Source: Candidatus Bathyarchaeia archaeon
GTDB taxonomy: Archaea > Thermoproteota > Bathyarchaeia > 40CM-2-53-6
Length of the DNA: 64,000 bases
Reading direction: 5' to 3'
Assembly: GCA_049517415.1 (NCBI GenBank)
Contig: JBEKSC010000004.1
Location: 32,001 to 96,000, forward strand
Shown here piece after piece: positions 1,684 through 59,631 of this stretch (positions within the stretch are counted from its first letter, which is position 1; the number at the start of each line of letters is the position of its first letter). Under the pieces are notes generated by a model. It was not told the DNA's origin. It ran no database searches and saw only the letters and a list, made by a program, of their open reading frames with translations. The translations under genes were made by a program, and so were the position numbers.

Positions 1684-4272
1684 TTAGGAGCAAGCGCCCC
1701 AGCCGCATTCGTGGCATATGTAGCAGCCTTCTTGGTACACGACTTGGCTTTGGCATTGGGGGCAAAGTTTGATCTGTTCGCTTGTGCCTTGGGAGGCGCC
1801 CACCAAGGGCACGGCCAAGAGTTTGGGTGCGCGAGGCGATTGTTCTTCGTCTGTGTTCTCTTCCTCTTTGGTTCCTTCAGTCTTCTTGCGGGGCACAACC
1901 AATACTTGGCCCTTAATCGATGTATCACGGAAAACGGTAACATCTTTGCAACCCAGTTTGTAGGCGAGGAGGTATGATTCACGCATGTCTTCGACCGTCG
2001 CATTGGCTGGGAAATTGTTTGTTTTTGAAATCGAAGAGTCCGTCCATCTTTGAAATGCCGCCAGAGCTCGGATATGGTCCTCTGGGCGAATGTCCATGGC
2101 GGTTATGTAGACGCGTTTCAGGTCTTCGGGGATGTAGCTTATTCTCTGAATTGAGCCGCCGTGGTCGTTCACATCTCTCAGTAGGTCATCGCCGAACAGG
2201 CCTTCTTCACTCATGACGCGTTCAAACACTGAGTCGATGTAGTAGAAGCTTCCAACCTTCACGTGTTTCTCGTAAACGAGTGAATAGACGGGTTCAATTC
2301 CGCTGCTGCATCCCGCGATCATGGAGATGCTACCGGTAGGTGCAATTACAGTTGTGTACCCGTTCCTGACGCCGTGTTGCTTGACCATCTCTGCTACTTT
2401 GTCCCAATCGAAGTGCCATAATTTTCGGTTCGCGAACCCCGCGAAGGGCAGTTTTCCTTCAGGGTAGAAGCTCTTGTTATAGTATGGTACGGGGCCTCGT
2501 TCTTTTGCTAGGTCTATTGATGCTAACTTTGAGTGGTAGTTGATGAACTCCATCAACTCTTCCATAAACTTGCGGCCATCGTCACTATTGTAGGCTGCAC
2601 GAAGTTCGAAGAGTAAGTCCGCCAGCCCCATAACTCCTAGCCCAATCTTCCGTGTTGCAAGTGTCATTTCCTCAATCGCTTTGAGCGGGAAATTATTCAC
2701 GTCGATTACGTTGTCGAGGAATCTGGAACCTACGTTGACCGCTTCCTTCAACCCGTCCCAATCGAAACTAATTTTTCCATTATTGTCCCGTTTAGCGAAG
2801 GCCCATACATTGATGCTGCCCAGGTTACAGGATTCGTTTGGGTAGAGCAATACTTCGCCGCACGGGTTTGTTGTGACTATTGGGCCGAGGTGTTTGAGGA
2901 AGGGGTTGTACTCGTTAACGTGGTCGAAGAAAATTACGCCTGGTTCGGCGCTCTCCCACGCCTGGTACACTATCATATCGAACAATAGGCGAGGGTTGAC
3001 CTCACGCACAACCTGCCCGGTTCTCGGGTTGATGAGCGGGTATGGCTTATTCTTGTTGTAGCATTCCCAAAAGTCAGGCATCAAGAGAACTGAGATGTTG
3101 AAGTTTCTCAGTGCCTTGTTTCCTTTCTTTGCCGTTATGAATTTCTCGACGTCTGGATGATTGCTGTTGAGTATTCCCATGTTGGCGCCGCGGCGGATTC
3201 CGCCTTGCTTTATCACGTCGGTCATAGTATCGAACAACATCATGAAACTGATCGGGCCCGACGCTACGCCCGAGGTTGAGCTTACGTAATCTCCTTCGGG
3301 CCTTAGTTTTGAGAAGTTGTAGCCCATGCCTCCGCCTGCTTTGAAGACCACTGCGGTTTGCTTCAACGTCTCCATAATGCTCTCGATGGAATCGTCCACA
3401 CCCAAGACGAAGCAAGCGGAGCCCATTCCGAGAACGTTTCCGAAATTGGCTATTGCGGGTGTGTTGGGCATGAATTTTTTGGAAACCATCAACCCATAAA
3501 ACGCGTCAATGGATTTCTCGTACTTGTTAAAGAGGCCTGCCTGGAGCATTTCGAAGAAACGTGACCAAGAGACCTTCGCGGCGCCTTCGCGGTCAAATCG
3601 GTCATACATTCGCTTCAAGGCTTCGAGATGGTATCGGTTGAGTGGGTATTTTCCGATGCTCACTTTCTCGTGGAATTGAAGGGGGTCAAAGTTTTCTTGT
3701 GGATGGGACTTCTGTTTGTTGGTTATGTCGTACATCTCTAGGTCGTAGAACAAATCAGGTAGCGCTGCGTGGACTGCGATTCGCGTGAAGAGTTGCTTCG
3801 GTGTTTCTATGAGCTTACCCGCTTCGTCTTTTTTCAGGTACCTGGCCTTGAGAACCCTGAGGGCGTTTAGGTCGAACACCTTGTCTACTTCATCGATAAT
3901 TTCTTTCTCTAGAATTCGTTGCTTCTCACGCCTAATCTCAGCCCTTTTCTGCCGGTAGATTATGTACGCCTTAGCAACTTTCGCTTGCCCATTTTCAACC
4001 AGGGCCCTTTCTACAACGTCCTGAACATCCTCAACGGCTGGGATCCCTTCGCCGCCATACTTGTCATCTAGAATCTCAACCACGCGTGATGATAGCGACT
4101 CGGCGAGTGCGCGGTCTCGACTGCCCGATGCCTGTATGGCTTTGTAAATTGCGTTTGCGATTTTCTCTTTGTTGAATTGGACAATGCGCCCATCGCGCTT
4201 TCTAATCTGGATGATTCTTGATTTCGGAGGAACGTCATTCGTCGAAGCTTCAACGTGGGACTTCAAATGCAC
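1684..4272 (-). CDS. nrdJ: Adenosylcobalamin-dependent (class II) ribonucleotide reductase with N-terminal ATP cone and C-terminal Zn ribbon
   Basis: IRKRDG ATP cone, SACFV, QGGIRRGANMG, TNPCGEV, IAPTGSIS, CPQC..EGCYICHECGWGAC. Confidence 0.95.
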   Translation of the reverse strand: MHLKSHVEASTNDVPPKSRIIQIRKRDGRIVQFNKEKIANAIYKAIQASGSRDRALAESLSSRVVEILDDKYGGEGIPAVEDVQDVVERALVENGQAKVAKAYIIYRQKRAEIRREKQRILEKEIIDEVDKVFDLNALRVLKARYLKKDEAGKLIETPKQLFTRIAVHAALPDLFYDLEMYDITNKQKSHPQENFDPLQFHEKVSIGKYPLNRYHLEALKRMYDRFDREGAAKVSWSRFFEMLQAGLFNKYEKSIDAFYGLMVSKKFMPNTPAIANFGNVLGMGSACFVLGVDDSIESIMETLKQTAVVFKAGGGMGYNFSKLRPEGDYVSSTSGVASGPISFMMLFDTMTDVIKQGGIRRGANMGILNSNHPDVEKFITAKKGNKALRNFNISVLLMPDFWECYNKNKPYPLINPRTGQVVREVNPRLLFDMIVYQAWESAEPGVIFFDHVNEYNPFLKHLGPIVTTNPCGEVLLYPNESCNLGSINVWAFAKRDNNGKISFDWDGLKEAVNVGSRFLDNVIDVNNFPLKAIEEMTLATRKIGLGVMGLADLLFELRAAYNSDDGRKFMEELMEFINYHSKLASIDLAKERGPVPYYNKSFYPEGKLPFAGFANRKLWHFDWDKVAEMVKQHGVRNGYTTVIAPTGSISMIAGCSSGIEPVYSLVYEKHVKVGSFYYIDSVFERVMSEEGLFGDDLLRDVNDHGGSIQRISYIPEDLKRVYITAMDIRPEDHIRALAAFQRWTDSSISKTNNFPANATVEDMRESYLLAYKLGCKDVTVFRDTSIKGQVLVVPRKKTEGTKEEENTDEEQSPRAPKLLAVPLVGASQGTSEQIKLCPQCQSQVVYQEGCYICHECGWGACS

Positions 4273-53173: not shown

Positions 53174-55507
53174 TCATGTTACCGCCGTGTATTTGTAGCC
53201 TGAACCAAATTTTCTTTGCCGAATAATCTTCTGCTCAAGTATGCTTGCGACCGTTTGCCCATCCAACTGAACGACGGTTTGGTTCTGAAGTTGCATCGGG
53301 CCGGATCCTCCTTGGGAAGTTGGCGCTGCGGGTGGCGTTAGACCTGCGCCTATGGCTGCCTGTTGCGCCGGCGTTAGAACCTCCTCGCCGCCGTGAAGCA
53401 TGTAGATCCCCGTTGTGGGAACCATGCCGCCGAGTTGATAGCCTGGGCCTGTAAATTCTCCAAGTCCAGCCCCCGAAAGGCTCACGTTAATGCTGGTCAT
53501 AATCTCGCTGGGGATTTTGTCGAGCCAACTGATGACGTTTTGAATAACGCTGATCGCATCATCCGCAATCGTGGTGACAGTCGTTTCTATCATCGACGGA
53601 ATTGTAGAGATAACTGCGGTGACTTGGTCGAATCCAGTAACCGCATCCGAAACCACAGAACTAACAGTGATGTCCTTTGTGGACGGGATTGCCGCTAAAC
53701 CTGAGGTAACGGCGCCGAACGCTGCCTGCGCCCCACTTTGAATCTGCGACCATGTATTACTGAGAGCCGCAGCCACAGGCTGCACGGCCGTTGTTACTTT
53801 AGACCATAACGTTGAGCCAAGGTTAGTGTTGATTTGGTTTCCAATATTCAAAGTGGTAGTGGCCAGCGGCCCCATCCCGCTCGCTGCTGCGGTGGTCACG
53901 TCGTCCGTTCCAGTAGTCGTATCCTGGGTGGTCTTAGCCCAGAGGCCGTTCCACCAGTCGGTTAGATCTTGCCCCGCTGTCTGCGCGCCCTTCTGGATGC
54001 CCGTCGTGAAATTAGCCCAGTCCTGCTGGTACGTTTGAAGCCACCCGGGGGCGTTTTGTTCTTGGTTCGCGCCAGTGAAAATTTGGTCGGTCGGCGGGTT
54101 TAGGTTCTTTTGACTGAAAGCTTCGGGCGGTGGCGTTACATTCGTAAGTGTGGCCTGGTATGTCGGGGCGTTGGATTGAGGAATGACTTGGGCCGTCTGT
54201 GCAGTCGCGACGCCCATTGGTATGATGCCTACACTTTGAAGCCACTTCACATCGGTCATGATGGCGTTTAAGAAATCCATGCCCGTGATCGCGAGGTCGA
54301 GTGCTACTTCAATTGCGCCTTTAGCAACCTCAGAGACGAACCCCATGAGTTCAGTCAAGTCGCCAGAAGCCACGAACCCCGAGAAGACGCCCATGAATTT
54401 ACTCCACGTTGTCTGGACGCTTGGGTCGAGGGCTAGTGAAGTGATCCAGCTTGTGAATTTGGGCAGGTTGTCGTCAAGCCAACTGGTGAGGGATGTGAGT
54501 GTGGGGAGAAGCATGTCTCCAATTTGTATTTGGAGGTCGGCCCATTCGTTCGTGAGTTGCTGCTGCTTTCCCGCGTACGTGTCCAGCTGGGTTTGAGCTG
54601 CGCTCCCGAACTTATCGTTCAGCTGCGCCATAATGTCGTTGTAGTCTGACGCCTTAGCCGTTGCCCAGTCAAAGTTGATGCCCAGGGCGTGAGTTATGTC
54701 GTTCATCTGGGATGTGGTGATGGTGCCGGCTTTCCATGCGGTAACTAACTCGCCCGTAATCTGTGTCGCAGTCAGCTCTTTCCCGGTAGTAGTTGTGAGG
54801 CTGATTCCTGCCTGTTGAAGTATCTGTGTGAAGGGTTGTAGGGCGTTGACGCCGGCTTTCTGAATCGCAGCCGTTAAGTCGGCGGTTCCTTGTTTAAGAT
54901 CTGCGTTCGCCTTCGTCGTAGTCTGAATAATAATTCCGTACCGGGAGAGGGTGGTTGTGACACCGTCGAATGCTTTCCCGACAAGGTTCACGGCAGTGGT
55001 TAGGTCAAGATTCTTCGCGGCGGACAGGTTAGTTGCGACGGTCAGCGCTTGTTCCGCTTGCGTTGCGTTCATGCCGTAGGTTGCAAGAAGTTGCAGCCCC
55101 TGAACGGCAGCGGTTTGGCTGACGGTTGAAACCTGCTCTAAGCCCTGGACGAAGTTCTGGATCTGTGGTTGCTGCGCAGCCCAGGCGGCGCCGGTTAGGT
55201 GGAGGGATTGTTGAAGCATCGCCCACGCTGACTGTGAAGCTGCCGCAGCGGCTACGGCTTGTTGTATGCCTTGGACGACTTCGCCGATTCCAATAACCGC
55301 CGCGCCTGTCCATCCTGCAACCGCGAAGCCTTGCATCATCTGGCCGACTTGCGCGAAGCCTGGGCCGAGCTGCTGCAACTCCATACCCATTAGGCCCATT
55401 GAAGCGCTAATCTTCCCCATCACACTACTTGCTTCGTGACGGCGCCGTTTTTGTTACGGCTCTACCGCTTGGATGGCGAAGACTATACTTCCGATGTTTG
55501 TACTCAA
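53174..55507 (-). CDS. Tail tape measure protein; 769 aa from TTG 55507 if the 24-nt intron 55438..55461 is spliced
   Basis: Ala/Gln/Thr-rich helical; LSRYGI, KFGSAA..DTYAG, GG.VPTTGIYMLHGGEEVL; spliced start MSTNIGSIVFAIQAVDEASSVMGKI. Confidence 0.85.
55438..55461 (-). other. Candidate 24-nt BHB-type archaeal intron containing an in-frame UAA
   Basis: CGGU/GCCG helix, bulges AGA and UCA, stem GCCGU/ACGGC; splicing gives GCG GUA GAC GAA GCA (AVDEA). Confidence 0.75.
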
Positions 55508-55551
55508 ATCACGTTCACCTTCGTGGATGGTGTTTCTTAAAAATCGGAAGC
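55497..55551. repeat. Direct repeat of 57336..57390 (chaperone end / tape-measure start junction)
   Basis: 55 bp, 6 mismatches by hand alignment. Confidence 0.85.
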
Positions 55552-55849
55552 CAGGTTCGTTGCAGGGATGGTCCCATGTTGGCGCAAGCGCAAGAAGTCG
55601 AAAGGCTCCGCGAAGAAAACAGGGGACATAGAGAAATTTAATCGGCTAGAAAAAGTTGCCAATGAGATAATGATAAAGCAAGAGGAACGAATCAAGAAAC
55701 TAGAGACCGCATCAAGCCTCAAGGTCGAGCACCCAAGCCACGATAAGACGCCCGTATCCAAGGACAAGAAGCCTTAATCAAACTCTAGGGACGATAATTG
55801 GCTTTGTCGTCCTCCAATTCTGAAGACCCTATCCCGTTTTTCGCCATTC

Positions 55850-56364
55850 TCATGTGTTTATGGGAAGCTTGAAGTACATGAATGGCTCGCGCCGACCTTT
55901 CGGTTGATTTTCAGCCAGTTTGAATCCGCAATGTTCGTAGAAAGGAATAGACGCTATCTTTGCATTTAGTATCACAAATTGACATGCAACTTCCTCACGT
56001 ACTTTGGCAGCTGTGGCGATGGCATAGAGGCAGAGTATTCGGCCGACTCCCTTGCCTTGAAATTGCAGTTCAGTAGCAAGTCGTCCAATCATCAATGACG
56101 GATAGTATCGGTACGGCGTGTGCAACGGGCGGTGTTTTTCGTCAATGCTACTGACTTCGATGCTGCTCATACAAGACTCAAGAAGCCTGCAATTTGCGTG
56201 TTGAACAAGGCCAGATAAATGACAGCCGCGTGCTGAAGTTGCTGGTCTTTGGCTTGGTATCTTATGTAGTCATTAAGGTCTGAATTGCCGCAGTCAAAGA
56301 ACCCTGTGTCGTCAGCTATGCTTAGCTTGCGTAGGTTGATTTCTTCGACGGAAAAGATGGACAA
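55850..56364 (-). pseudogene. GNAT acetyltransferase toxin (AtaT/TacT-like), frameshifted near 56168
   Basis: FDCGNSDLNDY..IAGFLSL in one frame, YPSLMIGRLA..QGKGVG..FYEHCGF in the next; one base missing. Confidence 0.8.
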
Positions 56365-56373
56365 GAAAATAAG

Positions 56374-56502
56374 TTACTTCGGGAAGCGTTTCAAAGCCTC
56401 TTCGACTAATCTCTTCTGCGCTTCTGTCGGAGGCTCCGCTGCGTCTTTCAAGAACGCCTCTGCTTCCTTCCCCTTCAAGGTTGGGGGTGGATTTGGTAGC
56501 AT
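56374..56502 (-). CDS. 42-aa putative antitoxin of the GNAT toxin
   Basis: My translation MLPNPPPTLKGKEAEAFLKDAAEPPTEAQKRLVEEALKRFPK; directly upstream of the GNAT. Confidence 0.65.
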   Translation of the reverse strand: MLPNPPPTLKGKEAEAFLKDAAEPPTEAQKRLVEEALKRFPK

Positions 56503-56598
56503 TTTCGTATCCTCCGTTGTCCATTATATCATCATGATGACGATGCCATATAAGTCGTATGCTTGGAAATTAGAACCCTCTCGAACTTCGCTAAGCTG

Positions 56599-56816
56599 TC
56601 AAGTCGTAGTGGCAGCAGTCGTAGTGATAGTTACAGTGACAGACCTCGTCGCAGTGTTAGTAACCGTAGCAGACTGCGTGTAAGTCACACTCCTAGTTGA
56701 AAGGGTCTTAGTGGAGGTAACACTCACAGTGCTCGAGGTAACCGAATTGCTGGTCTGAGTGGCGCTCATGGTCCGAGTGTTAGTTACGGTCGCAGTACTA
56801 GTAACTGTGGCACTCT
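56599..56816 (-). pseudogene. Orphan Thr-rich surface-protein fragment
   Basis: SATVTSTATVTNTRT...TQSATVTNTATRSVTVTITTTAATTT* with no start codon. Confidence 0.65.
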
Positions 56817-56930
56817 TTCCAAAAGTACGTGCACAAGAGGAAGTTGAATGTAACGCTTAGTTCCATCCTTCTGGGTGAAAAGGTAGCTGAGATACTTGCA
56901 GACAATCTTGGTTCCCGCAGCTTGAGACAT
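56817..56930 (-). pseudogene. Truncated N-terminus of a putative retropepsin-like partner of the upstream gene
   Basis: MSQAAGTKIVCKYLSY..YIQLPLVHVLLE broken by the Thr fragment before any DxG motif; position after a DUF5678-like gene. Confidence 0.4.
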
Positions 56931-56952
56931 GGGAAGCCCAAGAAAGCTACCA

Positions 56953-57168
56953 CTACATGACCATTACAGGATCTGACGGAACTTTCATCACGAATGGGAT
57001 CTTGTCTGGGTACTGGTGCTTGGCCTTTATGAAGACCTCTTTCGCGGAATTGCCTTCAGCGATGATCTTGTCGTCCACAACAGCAATCCAGCAATTCACA
57101 TAGTCCCCTAGCTTATCTCCAATTGACATTACGTACTCTAGTTCTCCTTTCATGGGGAATTTCCTCAA
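56953..57168 (-). CDS. DUF5678-like small protein
   Basis: YVNCWIAVVDDKIIAEG.SAKEV..AK..P..KVP. Confidence 0.75.
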   Translation of the reverse strand: MRKFPMKGELEYVMSIGDKLGDYVNCWIAVVDDKIIAEGNSAKEVFIKAKHQYPDKIPFVMKVPSDPVMVM

Positions 57169-57335
57169 GAGAGAGATGACCGGTGGTCATCACTCTATAT
57201 TTATGTGTAGTCACCAAGGCACACTCTCAATGCATCCCACTTCGATCTGAACTCTAGCTTCAGAGCCCTGCACTCCTCAGCGTGCGATTCACTTAATCCA
57301 AAATCAGGGGACTGTACCAACCCCTCGCGGGAATT

Positions 57336-57390
57336 TTTGTACTCAAATCATTTTCACCTTCGTGGATGCTGTTTTTTAAAAATGAGAAGC
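57336..57390. repeat. Direct repeat of 55497..55551
   Basis: Hand alignment. Confidence 0.85.
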
Positions 57391-57889
57391 AGCCACTCTT
57401 GTTGTAAACGAGTGGGTTCCTCCATTCGTTCGGTTAACTTGTAACCGAACTCTGAGACTAGGACTTCGAGAGGGGCCGAGTAGACGGATCCTTCAGCGAA
57501 TGAACTCAGTTTGGCTTTGAGGCTTTTGGGCCCGCGGACAATCCGGATAGCTCAAACGAACGCAGAATAAGTTTCAAGCTTTCCATGGGCATCAAGGCTT
57601 TGGCCACGTCTGGCGCGCCTGTGGCGATGGCTGCGCCTTTCTGTAGAAACGCCAAGTTCGACGCCAACTTATCCTTGTTGCCGATATCCTTCAAGTCCAC
57701 GTTTGTTGACTGTAGGAGCTCTGCCAGGTCCGCGTCGCTCATTGGTGAGACCTCGAACTTGTGCAGTTCATTGTCGACGCCCTTGACCTCGACGGCTTCA
57801 TGGTACTTGGTGCCCTTCGTGATGAGTTCGGCTAGTTTCTGGTTCGCCGCTCTGGCTTCCAAGATTGCCTCTCGTTTTTCTTGACTCAA
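57354..57889 (-). CDS. Tail assembly chaperone (G 57506..57889; GT extension to 57354 via -1 frameshift)
   Basis: Position between tail tube and tape measure; C CCA AAA at 57524..57530; open -1 frame of 59 codons including the stop. Confidence 0.7.
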
Positions 57890-57985
57890 ATCTTTTCACG
57901 CTCCTCGTTTTCTTCCCGTGAGCTTCCGCCTTTGTAGCTTGATCGCGGAAGTGTCACCTTGAGGATTCAATGCACTTGCGTGGCA
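57804..57985. repeat. Direct repeat of 58884..59071 (partial third copy near 59686..59720)
   Basis: tacttggtgcccttcgtgatgagttcg...cacttgcgtggca present twice. Confidence 0.88.
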
Positions 57986-58021
57986 GGCAGGAGGTAGACG
58001 CCAAGGTAGGATGATAAGTAT

Positions 58022-58044
58022 TTATTGATAACAGTTATCAATAA
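58022..58044. promoter_or_regulatory. Perfect palindrome, probable TA autoregulation operator
   Basis: TTATTGATAAC-A-GTTATCAATAA just upstream of the antitoxin start. Confidence 0.7.
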
Positions 58045-58060
58045 TTAATATGGTGGGGGC

Positions 58061-58381
58061 ATGCCTTCAAGTTACAATCTGCCGGAGCTCGTCAAGAAGG
58101 AAATAAGTGCGTTGGTCAAGGCTGGATACTACTCAAGCAAGTCCGATGTCGTAAAGGACGCCCTCAGAACCTTTCTCTCTTCGAAGCGAAGCCTGAGACT
58201 AGCAGCCGCAGCAGAGTTGTATAAGGACGGCGAAGTCACGTTGGGCAAAGCCGCCGAGATTGCGGAGGTTGGGGTAGTTGAGTTCAAGGAAATGTTGGCA
58301 AATCTCGGTCATAAGAGGATGATCTCCGTAAACAGGAGCGATGTCAGAAGGGCTGACGAAATTATGAAAAAGATGAGATAA
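58061..58381 (+). CDS. RHH/CopG + UPF0175-like antitoxin
   Basis: LVKAGYYSSKSDVVKDALR; LYKDGEVTLGKAAEIA. Confidence 0.82.
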   Translation: MPSSYNLPELVKKEISALVKAGYYSSKSDVVKDALRTFLSSKRSLRLAAAAELYKDGEVTLGKAAEIAEVGVVEFKEMLANLGHKRMISVNRSDVRRADEIMKKMR

Positions 58382-58863
58382 TGGACGTTGTCGTCGACAC
58401 AGACATTCTCTCCACATTTGCCAAGGTCAACAAGCTGAAACTGCTCGTCAGACTTTTCCCAAAATCGCGAATCTTGGTCTGCCCAAGTGTTAATCTGGAA
58501 ATTAAGAAAGGAGCAGAATTGGGGCTTCTGAGATACTCGCATCCTCCCGATTTCATTTCAGTCAAGTTGGGCATGCGTGAAAAGGCGGCAGCCGGAGAAG
58601 TCAGAGAAGCTCTGAACTTGGGGTTAGGAGATGCTGAATGTTTGGCAGTCGCTCGAAATAGGAATTGCTTACTTCTCACCAACGACAGGAAAGCGGAGAG
58701 GGCTGCGGGTTCGCTTTCCATCCATTATCTCAATCTCCCGTTGCTGTTGAGAGAACTCTGGAGGAGCCACGTTATGACTAAATCGAGGGTGGCCAAACTT
58801 ATCGACGAAATCGAGAGAAAGGATAACGTCGTGATCAAGAATCGAGAATTTGTTTTCAAATGA
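58381..58863 (+). CDS. PIN-domain protein (DUF3368-like)
   Basis: VVDTDILS, LGLGDAECL, LLTND. Confidence 0.82.
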   Translation: MDVVVDTDILSTFAKVNKLKLLVRLFPKSRILVCPSVNLEIKKGAELGLLRYSHPPDFISVKLGMREKAAAGEVREALNLGLGDAECLAVARNRNCLLLTNDRKAERAAGSLSIHYLNLPLLLRELWRSHVMTKSRVAKLIDEIERKDNVVIKNREFVFK

Positions 58864-58883
58864 ACCCCAAATCACAAGAACGA

Positions 58884-59071
58884 TACTTGGTGCCCTTCGT
58901 GATGAGTTCGCCGAGTTTCTGGTTGGCCGCTCTGGCTTCCAAGATTGCTTCACGCTTTTCTTGACTCAAATCTTTTCACACTCCTTCTGTCTTCTGCCTA
59001 TGAACTTCCGCCATTGTAGTTCAGTGATTGGGCAAGTGTAACCTTGCAGGATCCGGTCCACTTGCGTGGCA
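58884..59071. repeat. Direct repeat of 57804..57985; truncated chaperone 5' copy
   Basis: Encodes MSQEKREAILEARAANQKLGELITKGTKY, then diverges. Confidence 0.85.
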
Positions 59072-59098: not shown

Positions 59099-59359
59099 TT
59101 ACCTTTCATAAGCATCCTTCCGATGCTCAAATCTCAATAAGATCAGCTTGTCACCCTCGACTTTGTAAATGAGTCTGAAAGGCTTCACGTAAATGCACCA
59201 TTCGCCCTTCAGGCCATAACGCAGGTGCTTTCCGAAGTTTGGATTATCGGCAACTTTGTCTATTTGCTTTTGCAGTTTTTCCTTCAGGCTCTTGTCCCTT
59301 ATCCTTCTTACATCACGCTCGAATTTGTCGGTGGGTACGATGAACTTTATTTCTACCAT
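59099..59359 (-). CDS. relE: RelE/ParE-family toxin
   Basis: KFERD, NPNFGKHL...LKG, FRLIY, HRKDAY. Confidence 0.85.
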   Translation of the reverse strand: MVEIKFIVPTDKFERDVRRIRDKSLKEKLQKQIDKVADNPNFGKHLRYGLKGEWCIYVKPFRLIYKVEGDKLILLRFEHRKDAYER

Positions 59360-59631
59360 TTCTTGAACTCTTTGAAGAAGGCTTTCCTCGAATAGATCTC
59401 ATACCTTCCTTCTTCTATATCCTGCCATGCTTCCTCAATCAGCTTAAGTGTCCTCAAATCTTCGGGCTTCATTCCGGTCTCCAACTTCTTCAACACGATC
59501 ATATCCTTCCTCGCCGTCACGGCGAACACGCTCCCCCTCTTGATCCCAAGCTGTCTCCTAATGATGCTGGGTATCACTATCTGGCCTTTCGAACTTGCTT
59601 TTGTCAACTCAGGGATTCTTGATTCTTTCAT
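59353..59631 (-). CDS. AbrB/MazE-domain antitoxin
   Basis: SSKGQIVIP..IRRQLGIKRG. Confidence 0.85.
   Translation of the reverse strand: MKESRIPELTKASSKGQIVIPSIIRRQLGIKRGSVFAVTARKDMIVLKKLETGMKPEDLRTLKLIEEAWQDIEEGRYEIYSRKAFFKEFKKW

Follow-up and report, generated by a model that had tools for sequence, protein, structure and literature searches.

How is a structural gene of a virus read if its frame meets a stop codon 17 codons after the start? This question is raised by the tail tape-measure protein (TMP) gene of a provirus in the genome of a Bathyarchaeia archaeon from peat. We analyzed a stretch of 64,000 nucleotides (nt) of this genome, called the window hereafter (G000:C4:32001-96000 of the 2.65-Mb assembly); coordinates are those of the window unless another locus is named. 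Close to its 5′ end the TMP gene, on the minus strand, contains an insert of 24 nt, which the original prediction had taken for an intron of the bulge-helix-bulge (BHB) type. Our data support this view: the insert is very probably a BHB-type mini-intron spliced by the host, and the reading is strengthened by related TMP genes, which carry independent inserts of BHB shape at three more positions nearby.

The letters on which the prediction had been built were found exactly as described. The minus strand from 55485 to 55425 reads ...GTCTTCGCCATCCAAG CGGT AGA GCCGT AACAAAA ACGGC GCCG TCA CGAAGC..., and the 24-nt insert lies at 55461..55438. Without splicing, the frame opened by TTG 55507 encodes LSTNIGSIVFAIQAVEP and stops, as had been claimed, after 17 codons at TAA 55456-55454; the same frame then continues with ...QKRRRHEASSVMGKIS into a TMP open reading frame (ORF) of 749 codons (53174..55423). 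The starts picked by gene callers for TMP are the internal GTG 55423 and ATG 55420. The elements of the gene are as follows.

55515..55521, minus strand: Shine-Dalgarno (SD)-like AAGGTGA, 7 nt upstream of the TTG start; the alignment shows the same element before the TMP starts of relatives
55462..55507, minus strand: TMP exon 1, with the TTG start at 55507-55505; 15 codons plus 1 nt, encoding LSTNIGSIVFAIQAV and the G of an Asp codon
55438..55461, minus strand: candidate BHB mini-intron of 24 nt, AGCCGTAACAAAAACGGCGCCGTC; clean insertion with respect to relatives, BHB geometry, found in the DNA of 4 of 4 runs
55454..55456, minus strand: in-frame stop TAA, at which the unspliced frame terminates after 17 codons
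53174..55437, minus strand: TMP exon 2, with PHROG and PF10145 matches; the spliced ORF would have 769 codons

The ORF matches four PHROG tape-measure families (best E 1.9e-11), while the PF10145 match is weak. Its neighbors in the tail module encode a Prophage_tail-like protein and an HK97-gp10-like protein, and the genes for the major head protein, scaffold, portal and terminase lie on the same contig, past the end of the window. Excision at the BHB cut sites would generate the N-terminus LSTNIGSIVFAIQAVDEASSVMGKIS, which matches the homologue P0005 (LSTNIGSVVFAIQAIDEASGVMGKIS), and the junction-spanning peptide of the predicted spliced TMP is AIQAVDEASSVMGK. The intron boundary is ambiguous by 1 nt (A/A), the product being identical either way. 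The alternative register of 26 nt is out of frame, again as predicted.

The insert was then compared with homologous genes. A protein search with the TMP gave 34 matches. Four of them, at 98-100% identity (P0001-P0004), start at MGKIS or MGMEL, the point at which the callers resume once past the stop. Nine full-length homologues of greater distance were examined (P0005-P0013); they carry ...[AI][IV]DEAS[GSD]VM.K... upstream of the MGKIS point, and P0005, P0009, P0011 and P0012 begin with [LM]S.[NS]IGS[IV]V...; all nine, which are below 70% identity, extend upstream of the MGKIS equivalent and contain [AI][IV]DEAS. At the DNA level, 42 TMP loci with a 5′ end were assembled from the window, from viral, metagenome and genome contigs, and from two genomes of the host's genus; they represent 27 distinct 5′ regions. 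No insert is present in 20 of the 27, which read ...AIQA[IV]DEASGVMGKIS, and none retains an eight-residue insertion with a sense codon. Neither of the two outcomes named beforehand as refuting the original prediction was thus observed. The N-terminus predicted after splicing, which had been called typical of TMP, is the peptide of these insert-free homologues. The 24 nt form a clean gap inside the Asp codon in the 8 other rows (8/8) of one alignment, and in a second alignment the gap is seen at this site in all 26 rows besides the window and four identical contigs. The nearest relative (L005/L049), sister to the window with a support of 100/99, has no insert and shares 82% amino acid identity over 230 residues. 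Exon 1 is 83% identical in nucleotides (38/46) to that of L005, and five of the seven codon differences are synonymous.

Among 24 sequencing runs listed, 20 hold the stretch. In each of the four public DNA runs examined (2014-2020), a contig covers positions 55250-55700 with no gap and no other letter; the sole joint reported in the contigs of these runs is a 58-bp repeat, described below. Four metagenome contigs are likewise identical to the window at the insert. Since the insert recurs in several contigs and in 4/4 runs, it is real DNA, stable in nature. Even with up to 5 mismatches allowed, the 24-mer occurs only once in the 2.65-Mb genome, and the 20-mer core of the intron gave no match in the viral contigs.

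The structure predicted for the transcript consists of the following parts, a slash marking the cut.

55464..55467, minus strand: 5′ strand of the central helix, CGGT, in exon 1; pairs with GCCG 55443-55440 by three Watson-Crick pairs and one G-U pair
55440..55443, minus strand: 3′ strand of the central helix, GCCG, in the intron
55461..55463, minus strand: 5′ bulge AG/A, cut after the second base; unpaired in the minimum free energy (MFE) fold
55437..55439, minus strand: 3′ bulge TC/A, cut after the second base; its T pairs with G55468 in the free MFE fold
55444..55460, minus strand: intron hairpin of GCCGT (55460-55456), loop AACAAAA (55455-55449) and ACGGC (55448-55444), giving an inner helix of 5 bp
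55477..55481, minus strand: distal outer-helix strand CTTCG, with 9 unpaired nt between it and the central helix
55432..55436, minus strand: outer-helix strand CGAAG at the start of exon 2; pairs with CTTCG 55481-55477 in the MFE fold

A helix of 4 bp is thus flanked by two 3-nt bulges (AGA and TCA) on opposite strands, and symmetric cuts in the two bulges would remove 24 nt and leave the N-terminus seen in the insert-free homologues. In a BHB motif the cut falls after the second base of each bulge, a rule consistent with two tRNA introns of the host; for the 5′ bulge this is the very position that restores the frame and the Asp codon (GAC). The MFE fold of the insert region (-15.5 kcal/mol) contains 4/4 pairs of the central helix as well as the pairing of the upstream CTTCG with CGAAG that had been proposed. 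The flanking helices are an inner helix of 5 bp and an outer helix of 1 bp next to the bulge, followed by the distal 5-bp CTTCG/CGAAG helix across the 9-nt loop. Because the adjacent outer helix has only 1 bp, the motif is a relaxed form. The background rate of such geometry at a fixed position and length was estimated from 4,402,920 positions of the fetched loci, the boundaries of the insert being set by the alignment and not searched for: 3,237 positions (7.4e-4) fit with an inner helix of at least 3 bp, and 509 (1.2e-4) with an inner helix of at least 5 bp.

Six other distinct 5′ regions carry different inserts of 21 or 22 nt. Together with the window they represent six distinct contexts of insert and exon, five of them in relatives, and the four insert positions (that of the window, A1, A2 and C) lie within 23 nt.

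L004 (= G004, of the host's genus): position A1, six codons upstream of the Asp codon; 21 nt, central helix TCGT/GCGA, inner helix GTAGC/GCTAC
L062 and L073: position A1; 21 nt, TGGT/GCCA, inner helix GTAGC/GCTAC
L068: position A2, 6 nt downstream of A1, with the same intron sequence; 21 nt, TGGC/GCCA, inner helix GTAGC/GCTAC
L056: position C, after a Glu codon; 22 nt, GACG/CGTC, bulges AA/A and AT/G
L064: position C; 21 nt, GACG/CGTT, outer helix of 6 bp

Each of the five contexts in relatives shows a 4-bp helix, two 3-nt bulges and an inner helix of 3 to 5 bp, and a stop interrupts the frame of exon 1 in six of the six contexts. Applied to these inserts, the same cut rule restores ...A[IV]DEAS... 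in every relative and yields ORFs of 685-838 codons, except that L073 runs off its contig and that the ORF of L004, whose assembly has other frame breaks, is broken at a later point. Long outer helices exist in L064 (6 bp), L062 and L004, and the adjacent outer helix has 3 bp in L068 and L056; L064, L068 and L056 are thus stricter than the window. In the central helix, C:G of L004 (TCGT/GCGA) corresponds to G:C in L062 (TGGT/GCCA), the one compensatory change, and the fourth pair, T:G in L062 and C:G in L068, differs on one side only and still pairs. Hence the structure is kept through sequence change within this small set of six contexts. In a tree of the first 230 TMP residues the insert states are scattered, six changes being needed where four are the minimum, and within one clade insert-bearing and insert-free genes are almost undiverged. 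These data point to a family of TMP 5′ mini-introns that appear to be gained, lost or moved quickly. A 17-mer of the A-type intron gave 17 matches in the viral contigs, none in a TMP context and none fitting the helix, which we ascribe to chance.

The host encodes both enzymes needed. Two genes with the PF01974 splicing-endonuclease domain (190 and 187 amino acids; 79.5 and 56.5 bits; L001 ORF 1213-1785 and L002 ORF 1204-1767) were found together with an RtcB ligase gene (L102; E 3.4e-172, 572.9 bits). By eye, the first endonuclease gene has a Tyr...His...Lys pattern and is presumably catalytic; the second lacks it and is presumably structural. The pair would fit the two-subunit (αβ)2 type. 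Endonucleases of this type accept relaxed motifs, according to PMC5829648 and PMC2738675. ARAGORN reported introns in 25 of 30 tRNA gene calls of the host, but a strict hBHBh′ motif lies within ±4 nt in only 2 of 19 short intron calls. Since these calls look unreliable (odd anticodons), the tRNA introns are a weak control of geometry. The host glyA gene (G000:C45, about 3285-3320; L113, around 1495-1530) itself contains an interrupting insert, of 32 nt, that opens with an in-frame TAG. Its layout is GCGG AA/T AGGCA...TGCCT CCGT AG/G, and excision restores ...NRYAE/GWVGER.... In view of this BHB-shaped insert the host appears to tolerate such inserts in protein-coding genes. The glyA insert resembles that of the window by its host, its geometry and the in-frame stop, which in glyA stands at the start of the intron; it differs in being located in the middle of a cellular gene.

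From these elements the following pathway can be proposed. At the RNA level, CGGU from the end of exon 1 would form a helix with GCCG close to where the intron ends. The 5-bp hairpin of the intron would stack on one side, and each splice site would lie in a 3-nt bulge or a relaxed loop. The α/β-type tRNA-splicing endonuclease of the host would cut after the second base of each bulge, and RtcB would join the exons, creating the G/AC (Asp) codon and an ORF of 769 codons starting with LSTNIGSIVFAIQAVDEASSVMGKIS. Only the spliced mRNA would yield the full TMP, the unspliced mRNA giving a peptide of 17 residues.

Several observations weigh against splicing of this insert. The fold is moderately supported by thermodynamics: its z-score is modest, -2.40 with dinucleotide shuffles (4 of 200 fold as well) and -0.5 with mononucleotide shuffles. 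The outer helix beside the 3′ bulge is a single G:C pair, and the free MFE fold lengthens the central helix to 5 bp, leaving a bulge of 2 nt. Across the contexts the free MFE fold holds all four central pairs in just 3 of 6; folds constrained to the BHB lie 0-2.0 kcal/mol from the free MFE in 6 of 6, with +2.0 kcal/mol for the window. Cleavage and ligation in vivo are inferred from the sequence, and none of the runs listed for the stretch is on record as RNA. The ATG located 34 nt downstream of the stop could give a truncated TMP with no splicing. The ratio of nonsynonymous to synonymous substitution rates (dN/dS) against L005 is 0.23 overall and 0.14 in the first 350 codons, at a dS near saturation (1.3), because of which a recent loss of TMP function is possible. 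Finally, the provirus may be defective, because it contains several inserted toxin-antitoxin-like cassettes and a terminase gene in two frames (see below); if so, this copy of TMP may not need to be expressed.

In an alternative scenario the insertion, for instance the scar of a cassette, is never spliced. The TMP would then be re-initiated at ATG 55420 or GTG 55423, minus about 22 N-terminal residues, or the gene would be dead in a decaying provirus. The starts of P0001-P0004 at MGKIS or MGMEL, the proximity of ATG 55420 to the stop, the cassettes, the two-frame terminase and the lack of an RNA run among those listed all agree with this scenario. Yet it does not explain why the window and five other contexts fit a BHB at the exact bonds that restore the conserved peptide, nor the compensatory change in the helix. 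It also leaves unexplained that exon 1, the SD element and the start are intact, and that exon 1 is recoded in L062, L064, L068 and L004 while its peptide is conserved. Moreover, ATG 55420 has no SD-like element in front of it, the ORF of 748 codons is open with a dN/dS of 0.23, and in L056 a Phe replaces the internal Met, so that re-initiation there would lose more protein. We consider an unspliced insertion unlikely, if conceivable for this particular copy. Recoding by the ribosome across the 24 nt, either by bypass or by read-through of the TAA, is far less probable still. The stop followed by a hairpin resembles the coding gap of T4 gene 60, and the length of the insert is a multiple of three. 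A bypass fails, however, because there is no matching in-frame landing codon: no take-off and landing codons match 24 nt apart, GTA 55465-55463 would land on CGT, and the nearest GTC (55440-55438) is 25 nt away and out of frame, with a TGA after five further codons. Read-through would put EP?QKRRRH in place of Asp; it fails because these eight residues are absent from the homologues and because the 22-nt insert of L056 shifts the frame, so that one recoding rule cannot serve the family.

A chance hairpin or an assembly artefact is the least credible of the explanations, and we give it almost no weight. A loose scan for BHB-like shapes joining ORFs found 38 in the window against 17 in the reversed sequence, and because of this the shape alone is cheap. 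Here, on the other hand, the geometry was fixed by the alignment boundaries (background 1.2e-4 with an inner helix of at least 5 bp), and likewise in five further contexts; an artefact is contradicted by the identical insert in the four metagenome contigs (L045-L048) and in contigs of all four runs. A self-splicing group I or II intron was rejected, as a ribozyme core takes hundreds of nucleotides and the insert has 24; positions 55200-55800 gave no Rfam match at E<=1. An escape from CRISPR interference was also considered and is unsupported: a simple repeat scan revealed no array in G000, and the insert-free TMP 5′ region has no spacer-like match in 401 genomes of the class, the one 39-nt match (G073) being in an unrelated coding gene. 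As means of finding further introns in the window, the blind scan for BHB and ORF joining was too unspecific, and an all-versus-all blastn for short indels was insensitive, recovering the window's own insert only partly.

How could such candidate mini-introns reach this gene? Each insert-bearing locus was compared by blastn with its nearest insert-free relative, and every one carries 0.8-2.8 kb of extra DNA directly upstream. In the window (57333), L062, L064 and L004 the left homology stops 8-17 nt into the old TMP ORF, and a remnant start has therefore been left behind; in L068 it stops about 120 nt further upstream. In L062, L068, L064 and L004 the right homology resumes 1-9 nt past the 3′ end of the intron, and the extra DNA holds an opposite-strand gene followed by a new ribosome-binding site, a start, exon 1 and the intron. 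An endonuclease gene is located directly upstream in four of the five insert-bearing contexts for which upstream DNA is available (coordinates of the respective locus).

L062 2026-2847 (also in L073), minus strand: Vsr/DUF559/MTES_1575-type endonuclease, head-to-head with TMP; E 2e-12
L064 1999-2976, minus strand: Vsr/DUF559/MTES_1575-type endonuclease, head-to-head with TMP; E 2e-12
L064 790-1692, minus strand: second endonuclease gene, of LAGLIDADG type, further upstream
L068 1192-2040, minus strand: LAGLIDADG endonuclease, head-to-head with TMP
L004 2980-3854, minus strand: Vsr/DUF559/MTES_1575-type endonuclease in two ORFs, head-to-head with TMP; detected by tblastn with the L062 and L064 proteins

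Of the distinct insert-free regions whose upstream DNA spans 1 kb or more, 15 in number, none has such a gene beside TMP; the insert-free L052 has a LAGLIDADG fragment 1.7 kb away. The loci are interrelated, and the association is given with no statistical claim. Exon 1 of the four endonuclease-linked loci has only 46-62% nucleotide identity to the nearest insert-free relative, with an almost unchanged peptide, against 78-93% in the next 300 nt. Relatives of the endonucleases are represented by one distant match in the viral contigs; across the genomes of the class, close relatives occur in G004 only, the rest being Vsr-like proteins of about 140 amino acids or fused proteins.

The recoded exon 1 and the patchy distribution on the tree are possible indirect signs of homing. 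We tentatively suggest, as a possibility that falls short of probable, that the TMP mini-introns form the working end of a mobile cassette of a new type in archaeal tailed viruses. Such a cassette would consist of a free-standing gene for a LAGLIDADG or Vsr-like PD-(D/E)XK endonuclease, a ribosome-binding site and start of its own, a recoded exon 1, and a self-contained BHB splice module. The endonuclease would cut the conserved 5′ sequence of TMP in rival viruses, into which the cassette would be copied during repair. The carrier's target site would be split by the intron of 21-24 nt together with the recoding, while the tRNA-splicing enzymes of the host would restore the message. This would amount to collaborative homing on a host-spliced intron and not on a self-splicing one. 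The window would represent a derived state in which a toxin-antitoxin-like cassette has replaced the endonuclease and the intron persists. Speculatively, the unspliced state would also cost little, as the inserts lie among the first 18 codons and always bring an in-frame stop.

The window indeed has its own cassette, of 1.78 kb, just inside the old TMP start and bordered by the 58-bp direct repeat, the two copies of which are 88% identical.

55494..55551, minus strand: right copy of the repeat, comprising the end of the upstream tail gene, the SD element and the first 14-15 nt of TMP
57333..57390, minus strand: left copy, with the true end of the upstream tail gene and the remnant of the old TMP start (TTGAGTACAAAAAT)
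55552..57332, no strand assigned: 1.78-kb cassette with a DUF5678 gene, a GNAT gene and ORFs with no assigned family
56953-57168, minus strand: DUF5678 gene
56167-56364 and 55850-56170, minus strand: GNAT gene in two ORFs (65 and 106 amino acids) with an ATGA overlap

The DUF5678 and GNAT genes look like a toxin-antitoxin pair, and the split of the latter into two ORFs may reflect a frameshift, a coupling arrangement or some other interruption. The intron-bearing gene of the window thus has no adjacent endonuclease gene, in contrast to those of the relatives: none was recognized in the cassette, and tblastn with the endonucleases of the relatives found nothing in G000. Exon 1 of the window is not recoded either (83% identity, against 87% downstream). 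Two further toxin-antitoxin-like gene pairs, the first of them in a second cassette, are found in the tail module.

57994-58883, plus strand: VapBC-like cassette with a UPF0175/RHH gene (58061-58381) and a PIN gene (58381-58863)
59099-59359 and 59353-59631, minus strand: genes for a ParE-like toxin and a MazE/AbrB-like antitoxin, inside the tail module

The VapBC-like cassette is flanked by two copies of about 187 bp (about 57807-57993 and 58884-59069) of a sequence that is single in L005 (3294-3480). The cassettes in the tail module of this provirus seem to insert with long target duplications. In a gene about 2.5 kb upstream of TMP, L005 (1458-1498) and L049 (119-159) carry an insertion of 39-41 nt relative to six related loci including the window.

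The large-terminase gene of the provirus, outside the window, is in two frames with a 59-nt overlap at the linker between ATPase and nuclease (L103 8453-9902 = G000:C4:104453-105902). The related provirus of G004 (79% identical in the N-terminal part) has the same break, with the common text AGACCTCCCGCGCTGACTACTGGG, and in G021 a DNA gap of about 265 nt separates the two matching parts at the same place. We found no convincing BHB at the frame change in L103 and L105, nor around the gap of about 265 nt in L109. The break could be a conserved recoding, another kind of insertion, or decay. About 22 kb past the end of the window, near a possible end of the provirus, ARAGORN called a tRNA-Val with an 'intron' of 1197 nt (G000:C4:117730-119008), possible explanations being a long intron and an attachment site with tRNA halves.

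Apart from archaeal tRNA and rRNA genes, BHB introns are almost unknown: PMC7714728 names as exceptions the coding region of cbf5, the only mRNA with such an intron besides the HVO_1309 leader, and one 5′ untranslated region, that of HVO_1309. The cbf5 pre-mRNA intron of Crenarchaeota (Watanabe 2002; Yokobori 2009, PMC2738675) likewise is a BHB in a coding region, often relaxed and tens of nucleotides long. PMC2738675 ties it to relaxed motifs and to hetero-oligomeric endonucleases of broad specificity, and describes gain and loss among relatives. It differs in belonging to a cellular housekeeping gene with one insertion site. The TMP inserts are instead found in a viral structural gene, at four positions of its 5′ end that lie within 23 nt; they have 21-24 nt with in-frame stops, and those of relatives are linked to endonuclease cassettes. 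The BHB intron in the 5′ untranslated region of Haloferax volcanii HVO_1309 is another mRNA substrate outside tRNA, near the 5′ end of the message. According to PMC7714728, it is located in an untranslated leader of a cellular gene, has 46 nt, and was demonstrated by circular RNA sequencing and in vitro cleavage; the TMP insert is in a coding region and its splicing is deduced from sequence.

The 12-bp indels of the rudivirus SIRV1 and of lipothrixviruses (Peng 2004, via PMC2738675 and PMC4390879) are also very short, in protein-coding genes, proposed as introns and subject to quick turnover. They are in frame and translatable, and PMC2738675 reports neither a fit to BHB nor any demonstration of splicing for these putative introns of an archaeal virus; PMC4390879 discusses them under the avoidance of CRISPR interference. 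The TMP inserts, unlike them, bring stops or frame shifts, fit the BHB geometry and show a compensatory change. A further parallel is the collaborative homing of free-standing endonucleases and group I introns (PMC3984707), which the situation in L062, L064, L068 and L004 resembles by the endonuclease beside an ORF-less intron, the diverged flanking exon and the patchy distribution on the tree. The TMP intron would depend on host enzymes instead of self-splicing, and the window has no endonuclease gene. Archaeal rRNA introns carry LAGLIDADG genes such as I-DmoI inside a long intron of the rRNA gene. They are similarly BHB-spliced and associated with LAGLIDADG, whereas the endonuclease of the TMP relatives is outside the intron, on the opposite strand, upstream of a 21-nt mRNA intron. 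A literature search, with most subscription journals outside its coverage, returned no report of a BHB intron in a gene of a tailed archaeal virus, nor of BHB introns paired with free-standing endonucleases.

Since gene callers truncate such TMPs (P0001-P0004), introns of this kind are invisible in the current annotation of archaeal viruses. If the proposed splicing is true, viruses exploit the tRNA-splicing pathway of their host to read a structural gene, and the six natural variants at four sites form a compact, testable set of substrates. A possible route for the spread of BHB introns as DNA is suggested by the link to homing endonucleases in the relatives.

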